Below are positions 18,277-64,000 of a stretch of 64,000 nt of DNA, piece after piece (within the stretch, counting starts at the first letter, position 1; every line of letters begins with the position of its first letter). The notes below the pieces were generated by a model, which did not search any database, was not told the DNA's origin, and saw nothing but the letters and a program-made list of their open reading frames with translations. Both the position numbers and the translations under genes were made by a program. The DNA comes from Psammoneis japonica (lineage: Eukaryota). The DNA lies in contig QPGO01000276.1 of NCBI GenBank assembly GCA_008632985.1, positions 1 through 64,000 of the forward strand, read 5' to 3'.

Positions 18277-18295
18277 GGGGGGGGGGGGGGGGGGG
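18277..18295 (+). repeat. Poly-G run (~19 nt)
   Basis: Directly visible. Confidence 0.9.
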
Positions 18296-18395
18296 CAGAT
18301 TCCCTCAAGAGCACACAACATGTCTCACTGGCCTTGTCAAAGCCTTTCATGAAATGATGCGGAGAAGAAGCGATTCTCTTTGAGGACCTGCGTTA

Positions 18396-22806: not shown

Positions 22807-23149
22807 GTTCAAGAATAATTGGATGGTATTCAACGTTGCCTCTTGCCTTGTCTAGCAATGAGAGTAGACTAGACCATGCGGCACATGCCGCTTACTGCAG
22901 AGGGCCCTTCCGATGAATTTGTGAGCGAAAGGGCAACAAAACTGAAAATAATGGTCTCAAGATTCGCATGTTTTCATCAAATATATACTATATATGTATG
23001 AATGTTATTGATCTTCCGTTCAACGGAAATAATTCGAAAGCGATGCGCAGTTCAACTTTTGAAAAAAAATGCACAAGCACCACAGATGCCTTTTTTTGTA
23101 GAAACGCATCCAACAAAAAGCAGGACCAAGCACTGCAGTGTGCAGCATG

Positions 23150-27975: not shown

Positions 27976-30900
27976 TTAGAATGCACTGGTCGACCTCTTG
28001 GTCGGGCACCCCGTCACATTGCAGCTTTGCTGCAGCTTGCATTGCAGGAAGGCAGGGCAACAGCAAGGATCAATGTCCTGCTTCCTTTGATCCCGCATCG
28101 GATCATTGAGAATTGAAAGAGCCGGTTGCACTTGACATGGAACAGATGGGAGGGCTGCACTCATGCTCAATGCAAAAGCAAGCTGCTGTGCTGGGGTGCT
28201 TCTCATGGCTTGCAGCGTGTTGAACTGCTTCTCGACTTGAACATGAGCTGCATCAAGCAATGGAGTGTCATCCACATGCACAGCTTCAACCGCCACCTTG
28301 GGGAGCCATCGCAATTTCCACAACACCACTTGCAGGTTCAACGGTTGCCGCCGCTGCAGTTTCCTTGTCTTGACGGTTTCCAGCTTCTGATCTCATTTTT
28401 CGCTTGTGTGGATTTACGACCGGTTTTGTCCCACAGAGATTGCACATGCATCTGTCTGTCTCGGGGTGTGGAGCAATTGTTTCATTTCTGGCATTCTGCT
28501 CCAGCAGGTGCCGGGACAAGAAATGCTCGCCGGTGTCCCCCTCGAGCTCCCTCACATGCGGATGTGGTGCTTTCTTCCCCTTCTTTAATGCAAGGTTGTT
28601 GACTTCAATTAGATCAAGTACATTCTGATGAGCAACCACACCCCAAAATTCATGTGGAATCTTGGCTCGCGCCGTTGCATCCATTTTCTCGATTCGCTCC
28701 TTCTCTTCAATTGTTTCACCGTACAAAGCCAATCCCTCCAAAGCAATCAAGTCCATCAATGAATGTCTCATTCCACAATTTCCATGATGTGCCAGTGAAT
28801 TGTGTGCCTTCTCCAATTTGGACTCGGGTCCTGGCAGCGTTCGCCACTTCACCAGTTTGCTTTTGACCGCAGGGATGATGCTGCAGGCCAGCACTGCTCC
28901 GACTTCGGCACTGGAGCATCCAATCCCTTCGAGGTTTCTTCAGCATTCAAAACTGCATCCTTTGTGTCGGTTGTAAATAACGACAGTCCACTGTCTGGAT
29001 CTAGATGCCCTCCAGCAGCGGGGGCTCCATCAGAGGCAGTGCACTTGCATCGAGCAAACCAATCCTCGAGCAACGTGAGCCTTTTCTCCAGCGGGTGCCT
29101 CCAGAGACAAATGCATTCCTGGCAGTGCTTCCACCTTGAAGAGTGTGTGATGTCGTGTGTCTCCTCATCAGAATGCTTCTTGTTGTTTGGCGTGCCGTCC
29201 TTCAAGGCTTGTATCACAGCTTGGCGGTCGGACCATTCGGCACATGATGCGGTTGCTTTGAGATCACTGACAGCTTGCCAATGATCAGCATGTTCTTTTT
29301 GGAGCATTCTTGCAATTCGGTGCATCCAATGAAAGAGCCCAAGGAGACAGATCATGTTCATTCCGAATGTCGTCTTCCACAACTCCGACTTGTTCGGCCA
29401 GGTGTTGCTGTGGTGGAGTTTTGGGCGTACGTTCTTTCGCCTGGCAAACTGTTCTGCCGGGTGAGCAAAATCTTTTGCTTCCAATGTTGGGGTTGGGCAA
29501 GCGGTTCCAACCTGCACCTTTTTGTTGCACATGGTGAACAGGCCTGCTGCTCCGCCTGCTTTCTTTGAGCAGTTTTTGAGAATTTGAAAAGTGTGGTCGG
29601 ATGCGACGCTCACGGCGGCTCCAACCATCTGCAACAATCTCGTGCACCTGTCATAAGAGGACGTGTCAAGAGCCGTCAATTTTGATTCGCCAGATTCGTC
29701 ACAAAGATCACAAAGTGCTGAGGGTGATGGGCTGCACCCGCCCATCCAATCCTCAAAAGACACCCACTCTTCGCTTTTGTCGATGGCTCAGCAGTGGCAC
29801 TCTTTCTGGAGTTCCACAAAACAGGCGGCTCGCATTTGGTGCAGCATGTGCGAGAACTCATCCCCATTTGCGCACGTGACAATGAAGGACTCAAGGAGTC
29901 TTGTGGTTTCCTTGGTGAGATGCCACTTGTTGCTTGCACTGGCACACTCAGGCAATGTTGGATGTGCTGACTGCAGGCTTTTTGGCAGCTTGTGCAGCAG
30001 TTGACCGTCGTTGCCCTTGCATCAAATTTTGCATTTGTTGCATTCACACCACATTGACACCGCCATGTGCATCTTCCCGCTGATGCAATGTGTTGGTGTC
30101 GCCCCACCACATCGAGTGAAGTCCATACGATCATGAATCATTTCCCCGTCGCACTCTCCGTCAATGCAGGAGAGACAGATGTTCGGATGGTTCAGCTCCC
30201 AACAAACGATGCACACTGTCACACCTTGCAGCTGATGGCAGTGACAATCAGGCGGTGAAGTGCAGTCATCCTTGGGAACTTGAAAAGACATTGCACCAGG
30301 AGGAAAAGTGCCATCCTTGACCTCCAGAATCTCATTGAGCTTGGGGCTTTTTGCTGCAGCAACAGGATGCTTGTTGCTGCCTTGTTCAAATCTCGGCTTG
30401 ACAGAATCCAACAGACAACTGACAAGAGCACTCACTGCAGCCGGGCACTTCGTCTTCTCCTCTGAATTCTCACACTTTTTCACTCGTGCTCGAATCTCTC
30501 GTTTCAAAGTCTCAACCAAAAATTTGGCATTGGTGGCCAACTTGTGGGTGTTCTCGGTGCACTCCATGGGGCCTGCAGCATCAGCCACCCCCGAATTCAC
30601 CGGCTTGCAAACATCAGAAACACCTGGAGGAGGCAACACAGCTTGAGCTGCAGGCTTCTGTGTTCCAAAATGGTCTTGCATGGTTGACACTCCCTTTTCT
30701 GGAGCATCCGGAATCGTGTTGTTTGTTTTGTGCAGCTCTTCATCATGTTGCTCTGCATCCATGGCAGCTTTGGTGATGTTCACTTGTGAGCACCTTTTTG
30801 AAAATTTGCATGCAGGATCATGGCCATGATGATGTGCAGGACCTTTGTCACATCTCGTGCATTTCTTCATTCCGTCGTCTGCTCTTGCCACCTTGCGCCC

Positions 30901-31074
30901 ACTAAAATCGCTCTGATGCGTCCGCTTCTGGCGTGTGCATGCTTGGCTTTTGCTCGTTTTGATGGAGCCTTTGCGTTTCTGGGATTGAGTGCCCATGTTT
31001 CTAAAGAAAGGATGCAGCTGCCACTCTTCAGCCACTTTTGTTGGAGCAGATTCTTCCGTTGTGTCCGTCATCAT
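27976..31074 (-). mobile_element. Degenerate DNA-transposon transposase-like gene (DUF6729-like/Mutator-clan DDE)
   Basis: Frameshifted ORFs 30022-31074, 28849-29763 and 28286-28894 carry CxxC motifs, VASDHTFQILKN, LGLFHWMHRI and SKLEKAHNSLAHHGNCGM. Family assignment is from motif recollection; no TIRs found. Confidence 0.5.
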
Positions 31075-31762
31075 CGAAGCACCAGCAGAGATTGTGCTTT
31101 TCTCTCTCGTGGGTTTTTTTGTGAGAGAATTTTTTTCATCGCGTGAGAAGTCTGTGTTGTTGTGATTTTCCGTGGCATGAAAGGAAGATGACAGTCGGTC
31201 TCCGCATCATTCTGATTCTTGTGTCTGCTTTTGGAGAGTTGTCTCAACCTCCTCGTCCCCAAGTGATTGCGTCAGATTTTCCAAAAAAGTGTTGATTAAT
31301 TGGTCGGAAAGTCCTCAACTTTCCGAGGGTCTCCCCCAAGCAGAAATCCCAAATGCTGAATTCTGATTGGCGCTCACAGTTCCATTCCTGATCCTCCCTC
31401 AAACCAAAGGTAAAGACAAACCTGTGGTGTCGCGCGTTGATTCGCGCGTGCGGCAAGCAGACGATTTTCATGCCCACCCAGTGCAGCGCCGCCCTGCCTG
31501 GCCTTGATGGCGCCCCCCTGGCTGAATGAATTGTTGCGCTGGACGCCAGCTGCGGGGCGGGACAGCGGCACCGGCGAGAATGACATCATCACATCCCTCC
31601 TGACCCGGCAGGTGTGAAAAGAAGGTCTGGTTGTGTTTTTGCATTTTTCTTTGTGTGCTGATGATGGGGCAGTTGGTGGCCAAACCCCAATGCATTTGCC
31701 ACACAAAGCAGCTCATGCTGGAGCAAAGCTGGAAGCACCCAGTGGAACCACCCCTTTTGAGC

Positions 31763-31888
31763 CCTGGCAAAGAAACAAAAAACCTGTGACAGCCCATTTC
31801 CAAATTGTCTTGTGCACATGGCGCAAGCTGAAGCTCTGGCAAAGAAACAAAAACCTTGCAACAGCCCATTTCCAAAATGTCTTGTGCA
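31763..31888 (+). repeat. Direct repeat of ~55 bp x2
   Basis: ctggcaaagaaacaaaaa..cagcccatttccaaa.tgtcttgtgcaca twice; the copies differ by gTGac versus gCAac. Confidence 0.85.
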
Positions 31889-32713
31889 CACAATTTTTTG
31901 CAATCCCCACCATGTTGAAGCCAAGGGGGGGGAGTGCTCTCTCTCTCTCTCTCTCTCTGAGTGAAAGAGTGTGCCACATGCACAAAACAAAAGAGCCCAG
32001 TTTTGCAAAGCTCTCTCAGCTGAAAAAATTCATTGGCCTTCTTGCCCTCTTGTGTGCCATCTGACATGTTTCCAAGCAAGCCAGCCAAAGCTCATGCAGG
32101 AGGCCATGGGACAGCCAGCCAACCGCCCACAACTTCTCCAGGACAGCTGATGTTGCGCGGTCACTCTCTTTGTTCTTTCTCTCTGCTCTTTTTCCCTTTC
32201 TCTTTCATGAGCACAAAGGGGCTCCACAGCAAAGCTCAACAAGGGGTTGTTTTGCAAAAAAGAGGGTGTGGGGCTCTGGGCTCTTGTTGTTGTTTTTGGC
32301 TGTCACACCATCTCCTGGCAAGAGCCCATGTTGTGTTGTTGTTCAATCAAAGGACATTGTGACAACAAAAAAGTGTCATTTTGAAGGAGCCAGGTTCACA
32401 AAGTGCACAGAATGCTGTCCAGGAGAGATTTGGAGCTCCTTTCACAACACCTGGTTCGCTTCATGGCATGATCTGCTGAACAGACAACAGCACAAGGGGG
32501 CTGCATTGGACCAGCAATGATGCCGCCACACTGCACAGCGCCAGCTACATAAGGAAAAGCGATTTGACAAAATTTCGGACCTTTCATTCCCCTTCAATAG
32601 TCCTGAGAAATATACAACGGTTCTCGTTTCGCCCCCCTCACATTTTGATGGCCGAACTAACGACAGCCTAAGGCCTCCAACAATCCTGAAATCTCGATGA
32701 CATGACTGTCATA

Positions 32714-36161: not shown

Positions 36162-38216
36162 ATGTCGTTAACTCATCGAGCGATACTCACCATGAAGCAA
36201 GCCTTGCAGGGGGCTTCGTCCGATCCAGCATTTCAGCCCGTTGTGCAAATGATTCAAATCAAAGCCGTCACGGCAAACAATGGTGCTGGTGGAGAGCGTT
36301 TTCGTGTACGTATGAAACTACTTTAGAAATGCTGTGCATGCTATTATAAGTTTCCTCGAATCGATTGTAAACTGAATTATTCTTGTTCTGATGACTCTTA
36401 TAGGTGATTCTATCGACGGAGAACACTTTATTCAGGGCATGCTTGCTACACAGTTGAATGAACTGGTGCACTCGAATCAACTCAAGGAGAACGCTCTGTT
36501 GCAGGTGGAGGACTTTATGAACAACCAGATTCAAGGCCGTACCGTAATCATTTTGTTGCGTGTGCATGTCTTGCCCTCGTCTCCGTTGGAGCGTTTGGGA
36601 AGCCCCGTAGATGTCGAAAAGGCTGGCATTCCTGCCGCTCCAGCGGCAGCACCTGCGGCTGCTCCCATGTACAATCGTACCAACAACCAGTACAGCAGTG
36701 CTCCGCCTGCGGCTGCTGCTGCCAAACCGCAAAACAGCTACAACAATAACCCCTATGGTGGCGGCGGTGGCGGTGGTAATAACCCCTACGGAGGAGGAGG
36801 AGCAGGAAATTCGTACGGCAGTCATGCTCAAGACACGGGTCGCTTTGGTGGTTCGATTGCTCGCGATTCTACCGCGGGAAGCACACCCATTACTCCCATT
36901 TCCCAGCTCAACATGTATCAAAACAAGTGGACCATTCGAGCTCGCCTCACCTCAAAGTCCGACATTCGCACCTGGAGCAACGCCAAGGGCGAGGGTTCGC
37001 TCTTTTCCATTGAGCTCTTGGACAGTTCTGGCATGGACATTCGTGCCACCTTTTTCAAGGAAGCCGTGGACAAGTTTTACCACATGTTGGAAGTCAACAA
37101 GGTTTACACGCTTTCGGGAGGGCGACTCAAGGTGGCCAATGTCCAGTAGAACACGTGCAAGTCGAGTTTTGAAATCACCTTTGATCAGAACTCGGAAATC
37201 CATCTGGACAACGATACGGGTGATATTCAAGAACAGATTTATGAGTTTGTCAGGATTGCCGATATCGAAAACACCCAAGCCAACACCAATGTCGACGTGT
37301 TGGCGGTTGTCAAGAACGTCAGCGAACCCGCCACGCTCATTAGCAAAAAGTCGGGACAGAAACTCATCAAGTGTGATTTGACGCTGGTGGACGATTCCGC
37401 TACGGAAATCAACCTGACCGTTTGGGGCGAACAGGCCCGCCGGGCGCCTTCGGAATTTGAAGGCACGCCGGTGGCGGCCTTTCGGCGTGTGCGGGTCTCG
37501 GATTATGGTGGCAAGAGTCTCTCGTCGGGATCGAGTGGTGTGCAGGTCAATCCGCGGCTACCGGAAACGGCACGCCTTTTGCAGTGGTGGCAGAGCGGCG
37601 GTGCCTCGTCGGCGCGGTCCTTGTCCACCGCGACGGGAGGAGGTGGCCGTATGGATGCCTTTGCCGACCGCAAGACGATTAGTTCCATCAAGGAGAACAC
37701 TTGGGGAATTCGGAAAAGCCCGATTGGATCAGTTTCAAGGGAACCATCAACTTTCTCAAAAAGGACAAGGAGGGTGGTGCGTGGTACACGGCGTGCGCCA
37801 ATGCTGGTGAGCCTTGCAAGAACCGTTTCAAGGTGACGCAAACCACGGATGGAAATTGGTTTTGTGACAAGTGCCAGGGTACCTTTGATCATTGTGTCCG
37901 GCGTTGGATCTTTTCGGGAACCATCAATGATGACACGAGTACCACGTGGGTGTCCTTTTCAATGAGCAGGCTGAAACGCTCTTTCAGGGCGCCACGGCGG
38001 ATGACGTGTACAAGAAAACCATGGACGAGGACAGAACCAGGATCTCTAGGACTCTTACTTTGCTCGGGCGGTTGGCACGGATTGGGTGTTCAATGCAAGG
38101 TCAAGCAAGAAAATGTTGGAGACGAAATGCGAACCAAGACGAGTGTTGTCGCCATGCAGCCTGTAGATTATGCCAAGGAGCGCAAAGAAATGCTTGCGGC
38201 TATTGCTCAGTTTTAA
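36162..38216 (+). CDS. RPA1: Replication protein A 70-kDa subunit, disrupted as assembled
   Basis: ITPISQLNMYQNKWTIRARLTSKSDIRTWSNAKGEGSLFS, RVSDYGGKSLS and WYTAC..C..WFCDKC. Intron 36306-36403. Frameshifts near 36413, 37698, 37957 and 38040-38100; in-frame TAG at 37147-37149. Confidence 0.9.
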
Positions 38217-38765
38217 GTTCAAGACGCACAGTAAGCAATGTGACCAAGAGAATGATTCGTAAAGTTGGGTTTGAACAAGCGTCTTCTGCGGGGAATTGTT
38301 ATAACATGAAGTAAAAATTATTTGTGAGTTCTTTTCTTCCTCCAACTAGCTCCAATGTCGCTCGAATATTCCTCTTGTAGGAACAGCCGAAATGCTTCAG
38401 CTTCAGAATCCGGCAAAGACTTTCGATGGTTGCCGAGGGTTCTTGGGTGCTGCTGTTCACGCAAGATTCGTGCTGCATCAGGTGTTGCAGAAACTCCTTG
38501 TCCTCTGAGGACATGAGTGACTCATCCAGCTTCTTGATTTTTTGGCTGAGATACATGGCTCTTTTCTCGCTTGCGCTTCTTCGATTTATTTCTCTGCTTC
38601 TGTGATGTGGCACTTTTCTTCATCTGAGATTTGGCATGTGATTGACAATGAGATTTCAGTGCACTGCTGGGTTTGACACACAAAAGCAGCCAATGTGTCC
38701 ACAAGTCCTGTGTTTCCAGCCCACCGGATCTCACATGAACCTCAACTCTCGTTCAGCGGTCCACT
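37978..38765 (+). repeat. Segmental duplication, copy A (RPA1 3' end plus 3' end of a convergent gene)
   Basis: Colinear with about 43812-44656, e.g. ttgctcagttttaagttcaag and ttgcagaaactccttgtcctctgaggacatgagtgactc. Confidence 0.9.
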
Positions 38766-40520
38766 TTCTGGCAACACTTGGAGAGTCAATGGGCAGGGGC
38801 AACCGCAGTGCACCATGGAGGAGATCCTGCATGGCAACATCAAAGGAGGCTGACACTGCCAGTGCTGCAGGTTGTCACAAGCTTTCCAAAGAAAGTTGTG
38901 GTGCCAGTCTTGGCACCAATGATCACATTGGTGACAGCATCAGTGCAGTCAACAACGAGGGGGCGGTGCAGTCAATGAAGCAGCCACAAGAATGCAGTGG
39001 CTGACCAATGTGAAGTTGGTGCAGATGGTCATGTCAGAAACAGAATCTCAACCAATGGTGTGGATGATGCAATCAATGAAGCCAGAAGCAGCCACAGTGC
39101 AACAGCTGATTGTAAGATCAAGGTGGTGCACATGATCAGGTTTTGGCAGCAGCAACACAGTCAATGGCACAAACAGTGCTGCAGTCAATGAACTAGAAGT
39201 GGCCCCAGCCCCAGTGATGAGCAGTGCAAAAGATTGCTGGAAAAGGCTTTTGTCTCAGGGAAGAAGAAATGGAGCATCTGCTGAGAGGCAGCAGCATCGG
39301 TGCTGAGCTCTCAGACTCACACATCACTCAATGTGACGTTGACAGTGGCACAAACAGCTTCATGAGAAGCACTCCTCTTGTGACAAAATAAAATCAAAAG
39401 CAGCCCTTGCGTGCAAGAACATTCACAAAGTGCGCACTCTGGCAATTTGTCAGAATGACAAATGCTTGTCTGAAGCAAAAAAAGTCAAAGTTGTCACTGT
39501 GGTGCTGAAACTTGCACACAGAAAACCACACTTGACATCTTCATTGTGCCAGGAGTTGGAGCTAGCCTGGGGCAAAGAGAACAGCTGTTGTCAGCAGTGA
39601 TTCCAACAGGCTTCAAAAAGACACATGTGCAAGTGTGCGGCTGCAAGCCTTTTGACTCGACCACCCCTTGCAAGCCCACCTCATGGATCCAAGCCATTTG
39701 GAGTTGCCGACACGTGCTGACCAGCAAATTTGCTGCCAGCGCAGACAAGCAGACAGCCTCAAATGCAGCTGTGACAGAATCAGCAAATGGCAGGCAACAC
39801 ATCTGAGTGCCAGAGCCTCTGCCAACAAGTTGAGACAGCAGAAAAAAGGCACTGGCTGAAGGGCGCAGCAGCATTTCTTGCAAAGGTCAGAGACACAAAA
39901 TGAAAAACAGCACCTGGCACAGCAGCACACTGTGCTGCACTGGCAGAGAACTGGGCAGCCTTTGGGAAGATGCCACGTGGGTGCAACCATGCTGGAGATG
40001 ACCTCAGAGCAGCAGGCTCTGATGCTGCAAAGCAAAAATGGAAGAGGGACTTTGGGTCAGGGGCAACAGTGCTGGTGCCAACCCTGAGTCTCTCCAGCTT
40101 GGCAACAACAGCTTTGAGAACCCACAGTTTAAAAAAAAATCCACAGTTGCTTGTCGCACTTAGAGCAGAGGGCAGTTGCCACTGCCAATGTGCCACCTCT
40201 AGGCTGCTCCAGCATTGCAGACTGTCACCACGTGCTCTCCACTGCTGCCAACTGGGGTGCAGCACCCATGTCAATGCTGCCGACCACCACAATGCCACCA
40301 GCCACAAAGTTCCAGACATGATGCCGCCGAATGCACAAAATGCAGCCGACTGCAAGGCCGCTTGCGCTTGTCTCCGACGCGACAGTGAGCGACGCCACAT
40401 GGCGCCGACTGCGGCTCAACGCTGGTCTTTCGCAGACGAGTGAGCATGGCATGCAGGCAGCAAAAATAATGTCCATGCGTGCGTCGCACTGGCAGAGTGC
40501 CAATGGCAGACAGAGCGGCA
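38400..40520. other. TpA/CpG-depleted domain 4, unidentified degenerate insertion
   Basis: TA nearly absent. Homology to the 44-kb copy stops at about 38765. No recognisable protein. Confidence 0.7.
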
Positions 40521-42472: not shown

Positions 42473-42940
42473 CGCCATTTTTTGTCTATTTGAAATTTTT
42501 AAATAGAGAATTTCAACGGAAAAAATAACGTTCTGGACCAAGTTCAGACATGATGATTTTTCCTCGCTCATTTTACTGTACAGAAAGCTTACAGCATTGG
42601 ATGACAAAATTTCTTTACTATGGAGTAAATTAAATTTCATCATACTGAATAGGTGTGTAAAATTTTATCCTTAAGCATGACGTAGAGAACAATCTTAGTC
42701 TTGAGAAAATGAACTGGCGGGCTCATGCTGACTCACGCCATTTTTTACGTCTATCCATAATTTCTAAATAGAGAATCTCAACGGAAAAAACAACGTTCTG
42801 ACCAAGTTCAGACATGAGGATTTTAAATTAAATTTCATCATACTGGATATGGTGTATAAATTTGATCCTTAAGCATGACGTAGAGAACAATCTTAGCATT
42901 GAGAAAATCGAACTGGCGGGCGGGCTCATGCTGACTCACG
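42473..42940 (+). repeat. AT-rich tandem duplication (~265 bp plus ~205-bp internally deleted copy)
   Basis: cgccattttt..aaatagagaat..ccaagttcagacatga..ccttaagcatgacgtagagaacaatcttag..gggctcatgctgactcacg occurs twice. Confidence 0.9.
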
Positions 42941-43811
42941 GTGTTTTTTTCAGCATTGCATGACAGCGCACCGTGCAGTCCTCGAAGAGAAACACACTGT
43001 CCGAAGAAAGCACTGTGCGTTTGGCGACATTGTAGCTTTTGAAGCTAAAAAAGAGGCACAGAGACACTTTCAAACTTCGTCGCGTCCATCGGTCCAAGCA
43101 CCTGCCAGCAGGGCCAAGTGTCTTGAACAAAGCCACCGACAAAGCTGCAAAATTTAGTGGCTGACAGCTTTGACTGAGGAGACGGCGTCACCAGTCCATT
43201 GCTGCAGCAAAATGGAAAAAATTCTCTCAGTTTACTCACGTGTGTTGGTGCCAACACCATCATTTTGCTCAGGAGGCTCAAGTGTGTCCATGGAGAGTTT
43301 TGGCAGGAACGACAGCGCACACCGTGCCACAGTCTTGAAGAAATGTTTGTGCGCCAGAGGGGCAGCACAATTTGATTGGGGGGCAATTTAAAAATGTGGG
43401 CCCATCTCTCATTTTTCCACGCAGGTTTTGGGTTCATTGCATTTTGGCTTCTGTCGCATTCAATGGGGGCAGTCACACCAGCTTGGCTCACCCACAGTGC
43501 AGGCCCTATGTCTGAAATGCGGGTCAATGACTTTGCCCCGATTTTCGCTGTTGCGGGTCTGTTGTTTGTTCCTGCCTTCCCCCCCTCTCCCCAGTCTGTC
43601 CATTGTCATGTTTCCATTTTCTCACCTCCATTTTAAATTGTTGGCAAATGTCAAATTAAACAGCTGTCTGTTGCCATGCGTTTGCACACCACAAATCCAG
43701 GTTTTCGACTTCTTCCTTGCTGTCTTCCTCTGTCTGCATCTGATTGCCCTCTCCTTCTTGGTTCTCTTCTTTGCTGTCCATGCGTTGCTTGAACCAAACT
43801 TTGTCGCATGT

Positions 43812-44036
43812 GCTCTTTCAGGGTGCCTTGGTGGACGAGGCACACAAGAAAGCCATGGACAAGAACAGAGCCAGGGCAGCTTTGACTCACACTTTTTGCT
43901 TGGGCGGTTGGCATGGATTGGATGCTCAAGTGAGAGACAAAATGCAAACCAAGACAAGTGTTGTCGCTGTGCTGTGACCTGCAGATCATGCCAAGGAGGG
44001 GGCAAAGAAATGCTTGAAGCTGTTGCTCAGTTTTAA
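43812..44036 (+). pseudogene. RPA1: RPA1 3' fragment (duplication copy B), hypermutated
   Basis: Encodes DKMQTKTSVVAV..KEMLEAVAQF versus DEMRTKTSVVAM..KEMLAAIAQF in copy A. Confidence 0.85.
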
Positions 44037-44223
44037 GTTCAAGGCGTGCAGTCAGCAATGTGACCAAGAGAACAATTTGTAAAGTTGAGTTTGAAAAAGC
44101 ATCTTCTGCGGGGAAGTGAAATAAAACACGAAGTCAAAATGCATGCAAGAAATCTTTTCTTCCTCCAACTAGCTCCAGAGGGCTTGTCAATTTATTTCAT
44201 CTGCATGTGCACTGTCAAACACA

Positions 44224-45750
44224 TCATTCAACGTCGCTCGAAAATTCCTCTTGCAGGAACAGCCAAAATGTTTCATCTTCAGAATCCGGTGAGGGTTTTT
44301 CGGTGGTTGCCAAGGGTTCTTGGGTCGTGCTGCTGTCCATGCAAGATTCGTGCTGCATCAGGCATTGCAGAAACTCCTTGTCCTCTGAGGACATGAGTGA
44401 CTCGTCCAGCTCCTTTACTTCATTTGGCTGAAATAAAAGTGAACAGCTTTTTTTCTCGCTTTTGCTTCTTTGACTTGTTTTTCTGCTTCTTTGGCATGGC
44501 ACGTTTCTTCATCTGAGATTTGGCATGTGATTGACAATGAGTTTTCAGTGCACTGCTGCTTTTTGACACACGAAAGCAGCCAATGCATCCACAGGTCCTG
44601 TGCTTCCAGCCCACTGAATTGCGCATGAACCTCAATTCTCGTTCAGCAGTCCACTTGCGCTCAAACAAGGCCTTCCAATCTGCCTTTGATGCCTCAACAG
44701 CCCTGGATCATCTCTCACAAGGCCAAATCATTTGTTGCGCAAATTTCTCCACATGACAGGATCCTTCGAGAGTTCATTCCATGCCTTGCAGATGCCGCTC
44801 ATTCAAACAAGCTGTTTGCATCCCAAGAAGGAAAAAAGTGGTGAAGGACATTGCCGTGGAGACAGTCTCTGACAGGAACATCGACAATGCGCTCATCTTT
44901 TTGTTTGGTTGTTGGAGGCACATTGCGTTGAATGTTTGGCTGATCTGCGCTGTCATCCTTCTCTTCCAATCATTTCAAAGAAGTGAGCAAGCATTTGTGA
45001 CCTGTGCAAGGGCCCATTTGTTCATGAGCACTCCGCAGACCAATCAATTTGGGAAATGGCCAGTTTGTCCCACTGCGAATCGTCAGAACACTTTCACTCC
45101 CACCAGCCACCGCACTCAGCTCCGCAGATGATTCTGCCGAGACATTGTCATTGTCATGAATGGCATCAAAAAAGCTCAAAATGCCTGAAAGCTGCAAGGC
45201 GTGACCAATTTCATCCAACTCGTCTTGGCTCATTCCGTGCAAAAGCCACATGTCAGGAGAATCGCAGAGAATGGACAGCTGCCCAATGAATTCCTTGAAC
45301 AGCCCCTTGTCTCAAGAAATGTTGGAAAACACGTCTCGTCAATGACAAAGAATGTACGAAAGGCATCAAAGCAACGGTCTCATCAACTCATCTTCACACA
45401 TCCTTTTGGCATCATCATCAACCATCTGATTGTTTTCACCTTTCTGCAGCTCCCCACAGGAGACAGCAAGAGCGCGCTTTCTCAAGGGCTGAAGTGACTT
45501 CCAGAGCATTGCTGGGTTGTCAAAGAAACTGCACTTGGCAAGTGGCTCAGAATTCATGCGCAACACAAGCTCTGCATTGGAAATGCCGGCTTTTCCCAGT
45601 TTGTCAGATTTCGAACACGATGCGCAACACAACCAGATGCGATTCATGAGCAAGTCACAGCCTTCCGTTCCAAGTGTGTCGGCAAACAACACTGATGACA
45701 GCCAGAGAGCCGTGCGCAATTCTAGAGTTGCTTCGCTGATTAAGGGGGGT
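44224..45750 (-). pseudogene. Unidentified degenerate gene convergent with the RPA1 fragment
   Basis: Chain of minus-strand ORFs (45366-45719, 44774-44956, 44420-44668, 44224-44502). Its 3' part is duplicated at 38.3-38.77 kb (LDESLMSSEDKEFLQ). Confidence 0.4.
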
Positions 45751-46189
45751 CATTTGCTGCTTTTTTTAGCTCGAATTCGACCGAATGGCTTGTGATTTGC
45801 ATGATTTTTCCTGATTTTCACCGTGCTTCACCGTGGTGAAAACAACAAGCCATGAGTTTGTGACGGAGGTGGTCTGTCTATCAACTCTCGTTTGTTTTAT
45901 GTTCGTTGTGTGTCAAAGGTCATGCATGCATCAAATGTTTGTGGATGGACCACTGCATTTTTGAGCTGTGTTGACATTGCCGTCATCGTCGTGCTTCGAT
46001 CACGGTGCCTGATGTTCTCATTTCATGCGCGATCGGGGGTGAATCTAGTGCATCGCAAACTTTCTGAGTGCACTCTTGCATCCACTCGTGCCTCTCTGGA
46101 GTCCTCAACTCTTCTCACGCACCTCAACACCGCTCGTCTTGGTGATGGCACCTGGAAAGGCTCCACCCATGCCTTCACACTTCATTGGC

Positions 46190-46899
46190 AGGACCAACTT
46201 TGCAAGCACGAAGCTCTCATTCCAGACACGGACCGCTTCTCTGGTCAGAAACGTGTCATGCTCAAAAACACCATTCACCCTGTTGAAGAACTCCATTCGG
46301 TCAAGAATCAGGCAGACCAGTTTCATGTGCAGAATGGCACTGGCCTCTCATGCGAGCAATGCTGTGGGCTCCTGCTTTCTGCAGTGGCACAGTGCAACAG
46401 TGCATTCACCCCCAAGACGGTCCCACGCGCTCCGCGTCATGCCATCTGCGAACATGACCTGGCCCCCGACAACCCTGATGACGATGTGTTCTTCGACATT
46501 GACAGTGATGTTGATGTCATCCAAGCTCATGCCACACAGACTTGAAGGACCAACTTTGCAAGTGTGAAGCTCTCATTCCGGACATGGACCGCTTCTCTGA
46601 TGGTCAGAAATGCGTCATGCTCGAAAACGCCATTCACCCTGTTGAAGAACTCCATTCGGTCAAGAATCAGGCAGACCAGTTTTGTGCGCAGAATGGCACC
46701 AACCTCTCATGCGAGCAATGCTGTGGGCTCCTGCTTTCTGCAGTGCCACAGCGCAACAGTGCGTTCACCCCCAAGATGGCTTCCTGCACTCTGCATCGCG
46801 CCATCCATGAACATGACCTGGCTCCCACAGACCCTGATGACAATGTGTTCTTTGACATGGACAGTGATGTTGATGTCATCCAAGCTTGTGCTGCACAGA
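46190..46899 (+). repeat. ~357-bp tandem duplication in gag
   Basis: aggaccaactttgcaag...catccaagct at about 46190-46540 and 46547-46899. Confidence 0.9.
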
Positions 46900-47844
46900 C
46901 TCGTGACAACTCCCTCACCAGGGAACAATGGCGTTGCATTCCACCGGACCATCAGCGCATCTGGGATGCTCTGCCTCAGTCCACCAAAGCCATCATCCTT
47001 GGATCACGCACTGCTCATGCTGGCAACCACCATGACTCAACGGCCATCAATTTGCATGACCTCCATCTTGGCAGTGATGGCGACGTCAACTTGTCGGCCA
47101 ATGCTCACAACCTTGAGCCAGCCCCCGCAGCTTCCAACGTCGCAGCTGATCTGGCCGATGCTAATCCCATCCTGGCTCACCTCACCAAATGCAAGCCTTT
47201 GCCTCCCGGTGATCTGCAGCGGCTCCTTGCACCTGAACGGCCCTCTTTGGCTTGCTCTGGTGAGAAACCTCCCGGGTCTGCGTCTTCCCGCAACACAGAC
47301 ACTGACATTGAGATCAACGGTCACACTCACCGTCGTGTCAACAATCACAATGTCATCTGTTCCACCTTGACTCACAAATCGACTTGCAAGGTTGCTCTCA
47401 TTGATTGCAGCACAAACGGAGGCATTGCCGGCAAAGATGTTTGCGTCATTGCCTGCACTGATCATCAAGTTGATGCACAGGGTGTCGACAACCATCAGCT
47501 TGTCAACATTCCCATTGTCACTGTGGGCGGTGTCATCCACACCCAACATGGACCCATCATTGCCATCCTCCACCAGCGCGCCTGCACTGGCAAAGGCAAG
47601 ACCATTCACTCATGTGGCCAGCTCGAGTGGCACAAGCACGACGTCAATGATTGGTCCATCAAGGTCCCCAACGGCCTGCAGCGCATCACCACCATCAATG
47701 GTTGCATCATTCCCATCAACATCAAAGGCAGCTTGCCCTGCATTGCCATGCACCCGCACACTGACGCCAAATGGGACAACTTGCCACATGTCATCCTCAC
47801 TGGCGATGACACCTGGGATCCATCTGCACTTGACCACCAGTTCA

Positions 47845-48002
47845 CTGATGACAACACCTGGTGCGATGCCATCTCTGACCTCCAGGATGACCCTGCCACC
47901 ACTCTCTTTGATGAGTTTGGCAACTGATGACAACACCTGGTGCGATGCCATCTCTGACCTCCAGGATGACCCTGCCACCACTCTCTTTGACAAGTTTGGC
48001 AA
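47845..48002 (+). repeat. 79-bp tandem duplication inside the copia element
   Basis: Units start at 47845 and 47924 and are identical except gaTGag versus gaCAag. Confidence 0.95.
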
Positions 48003-51000
48003 CTGTTGTCATTGCCATGTCGTGAACAACGCAATGCTTGTGGACCACCTGCTTGACGACCACATCCTGCCGACATCTGATTTCTTCTACAAGTGCCATG
48101 AACGTGACATCCAGCCACAGGACCCTGACTGCAAGTCATTGCGTCCTCACTTTGGCTTCCTCCTGAAGGACACCATCCACCGCACGTTCGATTGCATGAC
48201 CCAGCATGCCTGCATGCCAGTCAGCATGCACTTGAAAAAGGCATGCAAGTCACCCAACCCAGTGCTCAACGTCCATTGCTGCAACAAACCTGTTGCCACT
48301 GACACAGTCCACTCTGACACTCCTGCAATTGATCCCGCATGCATCAGAGCACAGTTCTTTGTTGGCACCGAATCTCTCGTCACCAATGTGCATGGCACCA
48401 AGACCAACAAAGAATTTGTCAACACCCTTGAAGACAACATTTGCAACTCCACAGTGCTCTGTCCAAACTCATCAGCGATTGTGCCCAAGTCGAAATCAGC
48501 AACAAGGTGCTTGGCATTCTCCCCGCCCTCTTCATCTCCAGTTGGCAAAGCCAGCCTCATCAACAGCACCAGAACTTCACTGAACATTGCTGCCAAACCA
48601 TCAAGAACATGGCCAACATCATCATGGATTGCTTCAGCTCACCGGCTTGCACATGGCTTGTTGCCCTCATGTGCGTGTGTTTTCTGCTGAATCACACCAC
48701 CTCTGCCAAGCTCCACTGGCGCACCCCAACTGATGTGCTGACCAGATCTGCTCCCAACATCAGCCCCCTCCTCCATTTTCACTGGTGGGAACCGGTGTGC
48801 TGCCATTTGGACGACTCCGACTGGCCCTCCGAATCCCGTGAACTGCGTGGTCACTTCGTTGGCATCGCTGAACACGTTGGCCACCACATGACCTTCAAGA
48901 TTCTTTCCAACGACACCCAGAAGATTCTTCACTGGTCAAATGTACGTTCTGCTGCCAGCACGCCCTCAAAGTGCAACTTGTGTCTTGATCCTCCTGATGG
49001 GGAGACTGCTGCACCCATCATCAAATCCCGCCATGACTCTGAAGATCCACCAAATTCATCAGATGGGGAGAAGATCAGGATGCCCAAGATGCCAGTCTTC
49101 AACCCCGAGGACATCATTGGATGCACCTTCCTCATGAAGCCACAAGAAGATGGACAGCACTGCCAAGCTTGCATCGTCAAAGCTGTCGAAGACCACAACT
49201 GGGAGATTGGCGACAACCCAGAGCTCATCCAGTTCATCTGCTCCGTCAACAACAACAAGTGTGAAGAAGTCCTTGCCTGCAACTGCATCATCAACCACAC
49301 AGAGCAAGGGGAAGATGACACCACTGTGTGGAAATTTTGACGCATCGCATTGCATGAAGGACCATTGAGGCCTCACGACCCCTCATGGAAAGGCTCAAGC
49401 TACAATGCAGTGCTCAAGTGGGAAAGTGGGGAGATCATGTCTGAGCCCCTGGCCATCATTGCCAAGGACAACCCTGCAACCTGCGCCATCTGCAAACATG
49501 AACATGGCCTTCTCAAAACCAATGGATGGAAGTGCTTCCAGAAGACAGCTCTCTGTGCCAGAAGAAGCTCTTTTGCATGGCCAACCAAGCCAAGCTTTGC
49601 TCCTTTCATGTGGCCCCACGTCACAAGTGCGGATGCGAAGTGCCCCGTGACTGCAGGCACACTTTTGCTCTTGACAAGTGCAATTGCAACCGCAAGTGGG
49701 GAGATGCAACAGACCTTGAGATGAATCAACTCAACAAATGTGAGGTCTTCCACAACTGTGGGCACTGCAAGGAATCCAGTGCGCCACCCAGACACAAGAA
49801 GATCCGCGTGCACCTGGTGTGCGATGTCAAACATGATGGCAGACACAAGGCTCGCCTTGTTGCCAATGGGCATCTCACCAACACACCCATTGACAGTGTG
49901 TGCTCTGGTGCAGTGTCTCTGTGTGGCCTCCAAATGATGATCTTCCTGGCTGAACTCAACAAGCCAGAGACATGGGCCACCAACATTGGCGATGCCCATT
50001 TGGAAGCTGCGACCAAGGAGAAGCCACACATTGGCCTTTGCCATGAAGGACCCACAGACCTTCGTTGACACTCTCATGGAGAAGCACAAGTTCAAGCTAA
50101 AAGGCACTGGCCCTCTGCAGTTTCACCTTGGCTGTGACTTCTGCTGTGACTCTGACAGCACACTTTGCACGGCCCCTCGCAAGTGCATCAAACGCATGGT
50201 TGAGAATCATGCACAACTGTTTGGGGAGAAGCCTTGCACCAATGCATTGTCACCACTCGAGAAAGGAGACCATCCCAAGCTGGACACCTCCGAACTGTCA
50301 GAACCCAAAGGTGTTCAACACTTCCAGTCTCTCATTGGGTCTTTGCAGTGGGCCGCATCCCTTGGGCGCATTGACATCACCACAGCCATCATGTCCCCAT
50401 CCAGCTTCCATGCCGCACCCCGTCAAGGCCATTTGGACCGTGCCAAGCGTGTCTGCAGTTTCCTGTCTAAGATGCGACATGGTGTCTCATGAGTGCACAC
50501 CAAGGAACCCGACTGTTTGGACCTTCCCAAGCCTGTGCACGGCAATGTGAAGGAACTGATCCTAGAAGACGCACCTCAGCCCCTTGGCAAATTCATCACC
50601 ACCACACATTGTGTTGATGCGAACTTGTTTCACTGCATGCTCACTGAGCACTCTGTCACGGGCATCCTTCACATCCTCAACAAGTTCCCGGCTGACTGGT
50701 TCTCCAAGAAACAAGCTGCGGTTGAGACCGCAACTTGTGGGTCTGAATTTGTTGCCACCAGGACTTGTGCAGAGCAAATCATTGATCTGCACACCACGCT
50801 GCATCACCTTGGGGTTCCGATTCATGACCAATGTCACATGTTCAGGGACAACAAGTCAGTTGTTGACAGCACCACCATCCCGCACTCCAAGTTACACAAG
50901 CGACACACCACCCTCTTGTTCCACCGTGTGTGTGAGGTGATTGCCTCCAGTTTCCTCAGGTTCCACTTTGTCAAAGGTTCTTGCAACCCCACTGACGTCC

Positions 51001-51411
51001 TCAGCAAACACTGGGGATGCTCCCAGATTTGGAACCTCCTTGGCCCTCTAATGTTTTGGAACTTTGATTCCGAGGCCTTCAGTGATTCTGACTTTGAATC
51101 GGTTGCTGTGGACTCTTCAAGCAAACTGGGGAGTGACAGAATTTGAACAAGATTTTAGTTTGTCACACACAATCATGTGTGCTCTTAGTTCTGCGTGCAG
51201 TGCGCAATGCAGTTTGCTTTTGAGCCACTTGGCTCACAAGAATGATGACAGCAGCACCGATGTCACAACAACAGTCTTTCGGCTCCTGCAATGGTCTCTG
51301 CATGGAGACTCATCTGCCATTTAGACAGCAGCAAGGAGTCATTGTTTTCTTCCACCCAGTCATCTTTAATTTCTGTCAGATTGCAAGGGGCCGGGAGCAG
51401 TTTGTTGGCAT

Positions 51412-51413
<2 letters not shown>

Positions 51414-51446
<33 letters not shown>
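51414..51446 (+). repeat. (CT)n microsatellite
   Basis: Directly visible. Confidence 0.9.
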
Positions 51447-51449
<3 letters not shown>

Positions 51450-52034
51450 AAAAGGGTGTGTGTTGGCTAGATGTTGCTTCTTTCTCAAAAACTGCACCAT
51501 GTGGAAAAGAAGTGAGGAGTCTGTGTCAATGTTTGGTCCATTCTACATGAGGTGGGTGTCCACCTTTCATGGTGTTGTGACTGGGACAGATGAAATGTTG
51601 CTTGGAAGGGCCTGGGTGTGTGTGGATGGATGGGTGGATGGATGGGTTTGCAATTTACAAAGTTCAGAGCACAAGGAGCAAAGTGACACAATTGTCAAGT
51701 GAACGGTGCTTGCTGGCTTCAATTGACAGCCACACCCTCAAGGTGAGACCCCAGATGGGACTCTGATGCATGTTGAAAACTCCTGGTTGTGGCACATGGC
51801 CACAGAGCTCTGCAGTGTGTGAGCAGCTGCTCAATGCATGGGGAGCATGCGGGCAGCAGCTGGGTCAAGCTCAGCAAAGTGCGCCCCAAATGGTGTGGAG
51901 TGTGCATGCATTTTTCTCTCCAGCTCTGCATTTTTTAGCTCTTTCACAATTCCACTTTCCCCACCCAACAATGAAATTGACTGTTTCTTCAAATGCAAAC
52001 ACCCCGCCTTGAGAGGAGCTTGTCTGGATCTGCC

Positions 52035-53250
52035 TCACTTCCATGGCAGAGCCTGTAGAATCTGGGCGGTTCCAATGCACAGCAAATCCCCGTCGCCAAA
52101 CTCATCTGTGATTGTAAAGGAACAGAGGGTGCCTGGAATGGTGGACACTGTAAAGGTGCACAACTCACCAGCATTGGCAATGGTCCAAGGAAAAATGTCC
52201 ACCAAGACGCTGCCATTGCACACCAGACAAAAACCCATTTTGGAAGGAACAGCATCCAACATGATTTCACCACAAACAGTGTGGGCATTGGATGTGGCGA
52301 TGCTGGTTTGAGCATTGGACGGGAGATCTCCATGGTGGGTGCTGCTGAGCCGCAATCCACACAAGCCATGGTTGATGCGGTCGGGCTTGACGTGGTTGGC
52401 ATCATGGCGGGAGACCTTGTTGGCGACTCTGTCCATGGTGCCTCTGCAATGAAATCAACCACTTGTTCTTTGGCAAATGTTCCATTTCCACGAATCAAAG
52501 AATTGCCTGGACGAGAACAATTTGTGCCACAATGAACATGACAAAAACTGCCAGCATCCATTCTGTCTTGGCCCATGTCAGAAAAGGCAAAGGTGCAGGC
52601 CAGCCCGGCCTGTGCGGAAAGCGGCGCTGTGACCAAATGATTTGGCAATCCCCGACAGACTCTGGCGGGAACATTGGCAATGTTTGTTCCCTTGCAGTCC
52701 AGTTTCCATCCAGTCTCTTGTGGTTTGCTGTCCAACTGAATCACCACTGAAAGCAACTCGCAGCTTGTCGGTGCCATGGTTGTTGTCGGCATTGGAGATG
52801 GAACTGGGGAAGTTGACGTAGCTGCAGTTGGAGTGGCAGCTTTTGTTCCTGCTGCTGAGTCATTGTTGCTGCTTTTCATGGTCATTGGAACCACGACACC
52901 AATCGCAATGCCGGCCACAAGCAGTGCAATGAGAAGAATCCCCAAATGACACTTCCAGGGCTTGATCGGGACTGCATCTTCTGCACACAGAAGATTCTTG
53001 TTTTCATCTTCCTCTGGAGAGACAATGCAAGCTTCTAGAATCACATCATGCCCATTGGAGTGTCCACAATTGTCCCCATTTGCAAGCTGTGGTGCAGTTG
53101 ATGACTCTGGTCATGTGACTGAATGCTTGGAACTGCCGGGCTCTGTAATGCGCGCAACCCCCGGGAGAGATGATGCTTGTTCCTTTTGGCTTTTTTTGCT
53201 TTCTGCTGTTCAAATCAACAACAACATGACCTGCTGCTGCTCGATTCTTG
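52035..53250 (-). pseudogene. Single-pass membrane protein with Pro/Thr stalk and two extracellular repeats, hypermutated
   Basis: TM segment LGILLIALLVAGIAIGVVV. Two repeats: IQLDSKPQETGW..CTFAFSDMGQD and IMLDAVPSKMGF..CSFTITDEFGDG. Frameshifted; 5' end uncertain. Confidence 0.55.
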
Positions 53251-53549
53251 CAGCTTTCATTGTCTTTTTGCCTCATTGAATCGACTGCAAGACAAAGGTG
53301 TCTTTTGTTGTGCAGCAGCATCTTCTTGAGCAGAGGATTCTGAGCTCGTTGGAGGGAGAGGCGACTCTTTGGGCTCCATGATGTCTGCTTCCACAATGAC
53401 GCGTCAGCAATTTTGTGGTCAGACAAAAATTCTTTTGTTGCAAAAAGAGAACAGCAACAGCCAAGAAGTGACTTTCAGGGTGTCATGTCATGCTTTGAAA
53501 TTTTTAGTTTTTGATCACAAACCAGGAAAGCCCATGTGCAGAAATGGAG

Positions 53550-54800
53550 TTGAGGGGGGGAGCAGCAAGAGGTTGCATGGGATGGGCTCTGCGAGAGCAG
53601 GAGGAAAAAAGGGGCTTGCGTGACAGCATGAGGGATGAAGAGAAGAAGGAGTGAGGAGAGTCGGAGATGGGAGGGAGGAAAGGAAGTGGAATGATGGACA
53701 ATGTTGCAGGCAAGGGTTTGGACAGCCCATTGAGAAGGGGTGGCAGAGCAACAGGTGCTGCCAAAGCGGTCGGAAGCAAGCTGGCACCAAGCAAAGTGTC
53801 AGAGGCTGGAAAGAGGGCGGAAGGAGAAGTGAGAGCACAGGAGAAGGCATCGAAGGATGCAGGGGAATGAAGGAAGGAGGAAGGGTCAGGCCAGGGAGCT
53901 TTGGGCTGGGTGCAGAAGGATGAGGATGAGGAGCCAAAGAGAAAGCAATGAAAGAAGAAACCAAGGCTGCCAAGATGGTCAAGGGCAAAAGGAAGGAGAA
54001 AGCCTCCAGCAGCGTTGAGGGCTTGGACAGCAAGGGGACCATCGGAGGTGCAAGAAGAAGGGCCCAAAAACTTGGATCTTGCACTCGCATGGTGTGCCTC
54101 AGCAAGGACAGGAGAAGAAGGGGTGGGCAGGCCAGGAGGAGGGCAGGGGGGGAACTTTTGGAATGGTGACATCAACAGCAATGCATCGATGTTGGGAAGG
54201 AGCAGAGAGGGATGCAGGAGGAGGGATGGCGGTGCCTGCATCAGCTGGGCAAAGGAGAGGCCGATGGGGGGGGGAGGTTGGTGGGCTTGAGATGAACGTC
54301 ATGAGAAGAATGACAGAACTTGGAAAGAGGAGCAAGGGTGTGCGCGACAATGAAGAGAGTGTCGCGGATGCTGTTGGAAAGCTTGGACTTGTGATTGCCC
54401 TTGCAAGCAAAGGCATGATCACCGAAGGCATCTAAAGCAGCATGGCCGCAGGAACAAGGAGAACCAACAAGGGAGGAAGGGATGACAGGGAGGCGAAGCT
54501 TGCGTTGAACAGCCACAGTGTACGCATCGGAGGCAAGGCGCGAGGTGGGAAGCGCCGAGAAAGAGCATGAAGCGAGAGACTGGTGAGAGGCGAAAGGAGG
54601 GAAGGAAGGGCAATTTGAACTTTGGAGGGGGCAGCGGCAAGGGCGGAAGAGAGGATGCGTTGTTGATGAGCATGGTAGAGGCGACGGGCCAGGCCTGTAG
54701 AGCGTGGCGGTCTTGACCAGGGCCGAAAGCGAAGGAGGGGCCGAGGAAGAATCGGAAGAGAGAGCAGAGGCAAAGGAACGGAAGATAGAGTAGAGTCGCC
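53550..54800 (-). mobile_element. 5'-truncated non-LTR retrotransposon with restriction-like endonuclease (CRE/R2-type)
   Basis: QRKLRLP..CSCG..LDAFGDHAFAC..SIRDTL zinc knuckle, then LCPAD..IAVDVT (PD-D/ExK nuclease; family RPAD) and FLLPFALDHLGSLG, across frameshifts. Confidence 0.75.
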
Positions 54801-63700: not shown

Positions 63701-64000
63701 ACATGATGAAATGGACAAGACCCGAGATTCTCAATGCAGTGAGAGAGCCATCAAGGCACATGAGTGGTGCTGTGAGAGCTCACATGGCTGCAATGAAGTG
63801 GGTGATGCGATGCTGTGTGAGAACACCGAAGAGAGGATTGTTGTTGAAACCAAATGCCAAGTGGAGCAGAGCCAAGGAGCATGAATTTGTCATTGTGGGC
63901 AAAAGTGATTCAGAGTGTGCAAAAGATCAGGAGACGAGGCACAGTGTGAATGATTGGAGCATGCATCTACACGAGGTGCCCATTTCGATGCGAAGCAAAA
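58700..64000. other. TpA-depleted hypermutated domain 6
   Basis: About nine TA by eye in 60.7-64.0 kb. The 355-aa gag/protease ORF 60820-61887 has no Tyr. Confidence 0.85.

Follow-up and report, generated by a model that had tools for sequence, protein, structure and literature searches.

Loss of CG and TA dinucleotides from a dead duplicate of the RPA1 tail within a depleted island of the diatom Psammoneis japonica

A stretch of DNA of 64,000 nucleotides from the diatom Psammoneis japonica (contig QPGO01000276.1 of assembly GCA_008632985.1, positions 1 to 64,000 of the forward strand; hereafter referred to as the window) contains the tail of RPA1, the gene for the large subunit of replication protein A, in two copies, one belonging to the gene itself (copy A) and the other being a dead fragment 5.8 kb away (copy B). 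Comparison of the two copies with diatom orthologues showed that copy B is the derived one and that the changes it acquired are enriched at CG and TA, and a base-composition map showed that the window consists of domains in two sharply distinct states. As an explanation of these observations, we consider it likely that a domain-bound mutator that erases TpA acted on copy B alongside the decay of methylated CpG.

Direction and spectrum of the changes in the duplicated RPA1 tail

The RPA1 gene lies at 36382–38216 on the + strand of the window, which is nuclear DNA. It was identified by its Pfam families (Rep-A_N, REPA_OB_2 and Rep_fac-A_C) and by tblastn of a diatom orthologue, the best diatom relative aligning over 447 residues at 72% identity and then also over the C-terminal 176 residues. 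Local alignment identified the segments 37978–38766 (copy A) and 43812–44656 (copy B) as direct duplicates. Their alignment has 866 columns (656 matches, 112 mismatches and 98 gap columns), and the 768 aligned bases are 85.4% identical, with 78 transitions and 34 transversions. The repeat search and blastn, both of which recovered this pair, found no third copy of the duplicated unit in the window. Copy B takes in the last 239 bases of the RPA1 coding sequence, the 3′ flank and a further ∼410 bases. Because it begins within the coding sequence, has no start codon and is disrupted by an in-frame TGA, a deletion of 21 bases and a number of small indels, it is a dead segmental DNA duplicate of the RPA1 tail. 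A read-derived contig of 660 bases, spanning 43734–44393, matches it with 0 differences.

To polarise the changes, we took the C-terminal 110 residues from each of 120 diatom RPA1 proteins, some of them named from Mayamaea, Seminavis, Fistulifera, Cyclotella and Ditylum, and aligned them to the copy A tail, with X placed at two breaks; polarisation thus applies to coding codons, the non-coding differences having no third copy to polarise them. At 23 of the 26 nonsynonymous ungapped codons that differ, the residue of copy A was the commoner one among the orthologues (sign test, p = 9e-5), and none of the three exceptions, at 38003 (D/E), 38047 (TAG/TTT) and 38181 (CGC/GGC), is a TA or CG transition. 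Copy A has the ancestral state at all five polarisable TA>TG/CA changes (Y>H at 38009, 38056 and 38169, V>A at 38163 and I>V at 38202) and at all seven polarisable CG>TG/CA changes (37994, 37997, 38027, 38065, 38077, 38124 and 38130). These results show that copy B represents the derived state and that its changes accrued after the duplication.

The initial annotation, made from the letters of the window, had regarded the pair as a before/after control in which TA and CG both converge on TG/CA in the derived copy, with the conserved residues VDY setting the direction. The orthologues bear this out: copy A is ancestral at 12 of the 12 polarisable CG/TA transitions, with V found in 92 and Y in 114 of the 120 proteins, and the reverse polarity, in which copy B would be ancestral, is disfavoured by 23 of the 26 codons. 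The differences it had quoted are indeed present in the DNA, namely ctgTAgatTAtgcc at 38161 versus ctgCAgatCAtgcc at 43979, gcTAttgctcag versus gcTGttgctcag, gTAcaag versus aCAcaag, gaCGaaatgCGaaccaagaCGag versus gaCAaaatgCAaaccaagaCAag and ggcaCGg versus ggcaTGg, as is the motif ttTAag, which is retained in both copies.

The spectrum of the differences was asymmetric between the copies. In the aligned pair, CG occurs 32 times in copy A and 18 times in copy B; a CG of copy A appears as TG or CA in copy B 18 times, and the reverse was observed 6 times. TA occurs 18 times in copy A and 6 times in copy B, with 8 replacements by TG or CA in copy B and 0 in the reverse direction. Altogether, 13 of the 18 TA and 21 of the 32 CG of copy A were changed in copy B, as compared with 25 of the 125 TG and CA (Fisher p = 1.8e-5 for TA and 1.6e-6 for CG). 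We then compared the counts with 20000 shuffles that preserved each base-to-base change type, over the 740 columns with ungapped neighbours (108 mismatches). In the direction from A to B, 19 CG>TG/CA changes were counted where 7.38 were expected, a number reached by 0 of the 20000 shuffles, and 7 TA>TG/CA changes where 3.27 were expected, reached by 685 shuffles (∼0.03). Adjacent TG<->CA swaps numbered 8 against 1.31 expected (reached by 1 shuffle). Swaps of this kind are expected where the two copies resolved one ancestral CG or TA differently, one of them to TG and the other to CA, or, alternatively, where a TG became CA by way of an intermediate CG or TA that is itself hypermutable. The direction from B to A showed no enrichment (CG, 6 versus 3.96 expected; TA, 0 versus 1.21), and the permutation check that the initial annotation had suggested therefore showed CG and TA to be enriched for differences solely from A to B. 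The CG component bears most of the statistical weight in the pair, and the TA component is convincing only together with the island-wide data described below.

The asymmetry accords with the location of the parts of the pair. The gene-domain part of copy A (37978–38352, + strand), which includes the last 239 bases of the coding sequence and the 3′ flank, is unmutated: it has 18 CG and 13 TA in 340 columns, as compared with 6 and 4 in copy B, its residues match those of the orthologues, and the domain around it is normal, with observed/expected (o/e) ratios of TA of 0.3–0.7. The corresponding part of copy B (43812–44175, + strand), which has the indels and the TGA and is covered by the 660-base contig, underwent 12 CG>TG/CA and 5 TA>TG/CA changes, whereas only 2 and 0, respectively, are assigned to copy A. 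No derived TA change was found anywhere in copy A, its 3′ flank included. In the coding part, a hand count gave transitions at ∼36% of the TA sites, ∼36% of the CG sites and ∼8% of the sites elsewhere; the share at TA and CG is a lower bound because susceptible TA is exhausted. The downstream parts of the two copies present a different picture. That of copy A (38353–38766, + strand; 4 TA and 14 CG in 400 columns) is already within a depleted island, and that of copy B (44176–44656, + strand; 2 TA and 12 CG) includes an insertion of 53 bases at 44176–44228; here the CG- and TA-type differences run in both directions (7 + 2 versus 4 + 0), accompanied by 3 TG/CA swaps. The open reading frames common to both downstream parts (38302–38613 and 44227–44502, minus strand) matched no Pfam family. 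TA>CA exceeded TA>TG in the pair by 6 to 2, a strand bias that is not significant (p = 0.29). As a separate observation, the alignment contains only two A>C transversions, at 38232 and 38312; in each of them the base replaced is the A of a TA, and the context (AGTAA>AGTCA) is identical.

The designation of copy A as the clean, normal copy in the initial annotation needs correction. Only 37978–38352 is a true before/after control; from about 38400 onward copy A lies within the depleted island. In the RPA1 gene of the window, moreover, the frame is shifted by one base at four places (near 37695, 37955, 38030 and 38091), and an in-frame TAG stands at 38047–38049, where 117 of the 120 orthologues have tyrosine. 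The four frameshifts look like assembly errors rather than decay, because all the read-derived contigs that span them contain an additional base by which the frame is restored; at two of the four sites, two contig variants differ in the inserted base. A contig-supported substitution, C>A at 38181, removes one CG of copy A, but this site is outside the CG>TG/CA counts. The data sets listed for 36300–38400 included none of RNA.

The contigs also bear on the haplotypes. Those over the RPA1 gene show many single-base differences from the window, whereas those over the islands are exact. Read contigs connect position 42824 to 43741, skipping 916 bases and having 18 other letters between, and also have 114 letters in place of 38296–38352. 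Another haplotype is therefore structurally different right beside both copies.

Depleted islands and the sequence context of TA loss

A map of the window in 500-base bins revealed two sharply distinct states, with boundaries that are sharp within ∼500 bases. The depleted state forms six islands (approximately 1501–6000, 16751–20250, 23001–32500, 38400–40500, 43000–54500 and 58750–64000), amounting to 36353 bases in all. They contain 175 TA where 2279 are expected (o/e 0.08) and 884 CG where 2263 are expected (o/e 0.39), together with elevated TG (o/e 1.69) and CA (o/e 1.68), at a G+C content of ∼0.50. In the gene domains (25350 bases), the o/e ratios are 0.56 for TA, 0.91 for CG, 1.19 for TG and 1.22 for CA. 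Copy B is wholly within the island 43000–54500, about 800 bases from its edge, whereas the gene part of copy A with its 3′ flank (37978–38352) is in a gene domain. The 500-base bins of the island that harbours copy B have 0–7 TA each and CG o/e ratios of 0.1–0.84. The island 38400–40500 sets in ∼170 bases past the stop codon of RPA1, with o/e ratios of 0.04–0.17 for TA and 0.15–0.56 for CG, and a read contig covering 38737–40719 matches it with 0 differences. Read-derived contigs from a separate run agreed with the DNA of the islands and with copy B without any difference, over lengths of 1983, 725, 660 and 489 bases.

The loss of TA and that of CG are separable. The bin 17501–18000 has 0 TA and a CG o/e of 0.81, showing that TA can be fully erased at a place where the decay of CpG has barely started. 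A tandem duplication inside an island (46190–46901) has no TA in either copy; its copies differ at 40 positions, 37 of them transitions and 32 of them within the CG/TA/TG/CA set, as compared with 15 of 55 differences within this set in two repeats of the gene domains (p = 4e-7). An A+T-rich tandem repeat that abuts the left edge of the island with copy B (42473–42938; units of ∼200–265 bases) is undepleted, having 11 TA per copy.

Among the 66 of the 131 long stop-to-stop frames of the window that were scanned with Pfam, the only recognisable island content was a copia element, without any match to a viral family; the scan included 22 long frames in the island 43000–54500, and not one of these had a Pfam family. 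The copia-type element is decayed, lies at 60778–63999 (zinc knuckle and RVT_2) and extends past the end of the window. We examined its reverse transcriptase (63067–63999) at the 174 columns that are conserved in at least 60% of 71 relatives. A conserved tyrosine was kept at only 1 of 8 columns (the others being 5 Cys, 1 His and 1 Gln), whereas other residues were kept at 133 of 166 (p = 1.5e-4). Two Met>Val replacements and one Thr>Ala replacement each follow a T and hence correspond to TA>TG across a codon boundary.

The survival of TA, expressed for each NTAN tetranucleotide as its frequency in islands relative to gene domains, depended on the neighbouring bases. It was highest for TTAA (0.44), CTAA (0.40) and CTAG (0.29), and the surviving sites are mostly TTAA, CTAA/TTAG and CTAG. 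Intermediate values were obtained for ATAA (0.12), GTAA (0.115), CTAC (0.105) and GTAC (0.074), and the lowest ones for ATAG (0.037), ATAC (0.035) and ATAT (0, with none in the islands versus 64 in the gene domains). When pooled per strand, survival was 0.05 for TAT, 0.08 for TAC, 0.19 for TAG and 0.24 for TAA. This pattern fits a TA-erasing process that prefers a pyrimidine after TA (TAY), acting per strand far more on TAT and TAC than on TAG and TAA. In copy B, 5 of the 5 TA that were kept read TAA or TAG on the + strand, the retained ttTAag among them.

Some long frames outside these subjects have features of their own. Those at 18939–20240 and 385–1119 encode partial host-like domains (AlgH-like DUF179 and NUDIX) in partly depleted stretches (TA o/e 0.2–0.3), and may be further gene scraps at island edges. 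In the gene domain at 7568–13152, very long + strand frames with a high content of Pro, Ser, Thr and Ala recur at intervals of about 1150 bases, as judged from weak tblastn hits and the list of open reading frames, and probably encode a repetitive surface or wall protein.

Proposed process and rival explanations

In the explanation that we favour, copy B, once it was placed in a silent repeat island, would have been rewritten by two context-specific transition processes, CpG to TpG/CpA and TpA to TpG/CpA, both of which its parent, copy A, would have escaped in the gene domain. In the diatom Cyclotella cryptica, CpG is the main methylated context, and the methylation is concentrated in repeat blocks, up to 30 kb long, between which lie gene-rich stretches that are unmethylated (PMC5124317). 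Because repeat blocks of a diatom are CpG-methylated, the CpG part would represent deamination of 5-methylcytosine. Since a bin can combine 0 TA with a CG o/e of 0.81, the TpA part would be a separate process; it, too, would be tied to this silent chromatin. It would hit any DNA in the domain, whether derived from the host or not, without need for sequence repetition. The working gene kept its TA and CG while its duplicate lost most of them, and the change therefore befell the DNA where it lies. A scrap of a host gene was hit, whereas its parent and the nearby tandem repeat were spared, which argues that position, rather than foreign origin or repetition, decides. As to the chemistry of the TpA part, the most likely candidate would be enzymatic deamination, converting adenine to hypoxanthine at 5′-TA-3′, with TAY preferred and the product read as G at the next replication, to which we give about one chance in three; the main alternative would be hydroxylation or another modification of thymine at TpA, followed by mispairing with G.

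Several observations weigh against this explanation. Taken on the pair alone, the direction test for TA gives p = 0.066, and the TA signal in the shuffles is modest (∼0.03). Transversions account for 5 of the 13 changed TA. Among the 8 TA transitions, 3 have the form TTAY>TCAY and would lie on the strand that a model of adenine deamination with TAY preference disfavours. As many as 69 of the 112 mismatches are outside any CG or TA in both copies (16 of the 69 being the 8 TG/CA swaps), so that copy B must also have decayed in the ordinary way. Moreover, the coding part of copy A is under purifying selection, and its unmutated state alone is no proof that the process never reached it; the only near-neutral portion of the copy A domain is the 3′ flank, with 133 columns. 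Nor is it recorded on which platform the supporting runs were sequenced, a point that also bears on the miscalling explanation below.

These points bear in part on one alternative, in which copy B is an ordinary pseudogene that also underwent methyl-CpG decay, the TA losses being due to chance or to a weak general instability of TA. The dominance of the CG component in the pair (19 versus 7.4 expected), a TA count that 685 of the 20000 shuffles reached, the 5 transversions among the 13 TA changes and the mildly low TA even of the gene domains (o/e 0.56) would all be accommodated by it. The direction of the TA changes in the pair, 8 to 0, is less easily so, and plain decay cannot give islands with 175 of 2279 expected TA. 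Also against it are the TG and CA raised to 1.68–1.69 in the islands, the bins with 0 TA and yet near-normal CG, and the copia reverse transcriptase that kept 1 of 8 conserved tyrosines against 133 of 166 other residues. This alternative is already contradicted at the scale of the window, and we regard it as very unlikely. We rate somewhat higher, although still as unlikely, a homology-dependent process resembling repeat-induced point mutation (RIP), whereby the duplication itself triggered the mutation of copy B. Copy B is a duplicate, the islands contain repeats and the copia element, and the downstream parts of both copies carry CG/TA-type changes and 3 swaps, as if both had been hit after the duplication. 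On the other hand, the gene part and 3′ flank of copy A have 0 derived TA and only 2 derived CG changes, the tandem repeat 42473–42938 beside the island keeps 11 and 11 TA, and most of the island sequence is without a second copy in the window. The direction is also opposite, since RIP makes TA (PMC2621366), and a hypermutated region of the alga Bigelowiella natans is single-copy (10.64898/2026.01.13.699255).

The two remaining explanations are still less probable. If an RNA had been subjected to A-to-I editing by an ADAR- or ADAT-like enzyme and then reverse-transcribed, copy B would be an edited retrocopy. This is highly improbable: the collinearity of copy B with copy A continues for ∼550 bases beyond the stop codon, copy B begins inside the coding sequence and lacks a poly-A end, and the depletion extends across whole islands and affects both strands alike (TG 1.69, CA 1.68). 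A pyrimidine is preferred after the A here, unlike the G that ADAR prefers after the edited A. A retroelement does reside in the island at 60778–64000, and the replacement of A by G (or T by C) with a T before the A is as in known RNA editing (10.64898/2026.01.13.699255). The other explanation, that modified bases in silent DNA were miscalled so that TA and CG were read as TG/CA, is hardly credible. Local assembly errors do occur, as the four RPA1 frameshifts contradicted by contigs attest, and only 0.60 of the sampled words of 36300–38400 were found in the best run; however, the contigs of the separate run agree exactly with the DNA of the islands and with copy B, and copy B differs from copy A by indels as well and by the 69 changes outside CG and TA.

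We also considered and rejected other sources of the bias. Biased gene conversion was rejected because the G+C content of the islands is unchanged and CG>TG is opposite to it in direction. Polymerase-eta type mutagenesis has the motif WA, with A>G at TA and AA, and was rejected because AA is not reduced in the islands (o/e 1.22, as compared with 1.14 in the gene domains). With respect to N6-methyladenine at ApT, no loss of AT was found (o/e 0.87 versus 0.93).

Relation to known systems and significance

Full-text literature searches found no description of TpA erasure in diatoms, and only a preprint on B. natans surfaced; a match to ‘TpA’ in PMC4504042 proved to be ‘Tpase’ and hence irrelevant. 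According to the preprint, two silent integrated regions of nucleocytoplasmic large DNA virus (NCLDV)/virophage origin in B. natans undergo A:T>G:C hypermutation exclusively at TpA, as was directly observed in mutation-accumulation lines (Mettrop et al., bioRxiv 10.64898/2026.01.13.699255). It occurs de novo, at a rate ∼1000 times the background and in only some lines; reverse-transcriptase and transposase domains are over-represented among the TpA-poor genes, and the authors propose an ADAT2-like adenine deaminase (10.64898/2026.01.13.699255). The two cases are alike in that A:T>G:C changes at TpA give TpG/CpA (with Tyr turned into Cys or His at 6 of 8 copia columns here), in that bounded silent regions are affected within an otherwise ordinary nuclear genome, and in the long-term depletion of TpA with enrichment of CpA and TpG. 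They differ in the host, a chlorarachniophyte there and a diatom, a stramenopile, here, and in the targets, which are integrated viruses in B. natans, whereas those seen in P. japonica are repeat islands of old age, a copia element and a piece of a housekeeping gene of the host; the RPA1 fragment as a target again indicates that position, not origin, decides. The depletion is deeper here (TA o/e of 0.08 in the islands versus 0.45 for the NCLDV region of B. natans) and is accompanied by strong CpG decay, which the preprint text does not report. A pyrimidine preference after TA was observed here, whereas the preprint text does not contain the words ‘flanking’, ‘trinucleotide’, ‘diatom’ or ‘stramenopile’. 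The process was watched in B. natans, whereas in P. japonica we infer it from sequence.

Other known systems share some of these features. Fungal RIP depends on RID and on a premeiotic stage. Like the process considered here, it is a DNA-level, context-specific burst of transitions that inactivates repeats and duplicated gene pieces, leaving a dinucleotide footprint. In Neurospora and other ascomycetes, however, RIP produces C:G>T:A transitions, mostly CpA>TpA, making TA and lowering G+C (PMC2621366), whereas here TA is destroyed (o/e 0.08), CA and TG are raised and G+C stays at ∼0.50. RIP mutates both copies, whereas the gene part of the pair has 0 TA and 2 CG changes in copy A versus 5 and 12 in copy B, with the reservation that the coding part of copy A is under selection. 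Methyl-CpG decay would account for the CG half of the changes, consistent with the excess of CG>TG/CA (19 versus 7.4), its direction at 7 of 7 polarised sites and the island CG o/e of 0.39, but it cannot explain the loss of TA. In animals, ADAR hyper-edits double-stranded RNA and APOBEC edits the DNA of retroelements; here likewise a deaminase serves as a mutagenic defence against selfish or foreign nucleic acid. To our knowledge, ADAR is known only from animals. In our case the substrate must be chromosomal DNA, because a duplicate that was not retrocopied and whole islands were reached, and a pyrimidine is favoured after the A. According to the B. natans preprint, ADAR prefers to have U preceding the edited A (10.64898/2026.01.13.699255).

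What is new here is a before/after pair polarised by outgroups, and host DNA that was treated like a transposon in an island. The pair is one of the few places where the states before and after the change stand side by side with an outside check on the direction. It indicates that the TA- and CG-poor composition of the islands was acquired in place rather than brought in by foreign DNA, and that an ordinary piece of a host gene is treated like a transposon once it is within an island; action bound to position narrows the mechanism to something that is read from the chromatin state. A phenomenon known from one preprint on an unrelated alga is thereby extended to diatoms, which are major primary producers and include tractable model species. 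In practical terms, gene and repeat finders will misread the islands, in which only TGA stops are left and tyrosine codons have become those of Cys or His.

A broader proposal, which we put forward tentatively and consider to have somewhat less than an even chance of being right, is that diatoms possess an undescribed DNA-editing arm of heterochromatin, in which an enzyme acting on silent, probably CpG-methylated chromatin would convert 5′-TAY-3′ to 5′-TGY-3′ on either strand of any DNA in the domain, scraps of essential genes included, and would stop within ∼200 bases of a working gene. Such editing would erase the stop codons TAA and TAG as well as tyrosine codons. It would constitute a second eukaryotic counterpart of fungal RIP, chemically distinct from it, and, since the only other case is rhizarian, the system may be old and widespread in the lineages of stramenopiles, alveolates and Rhizaria (SAR).

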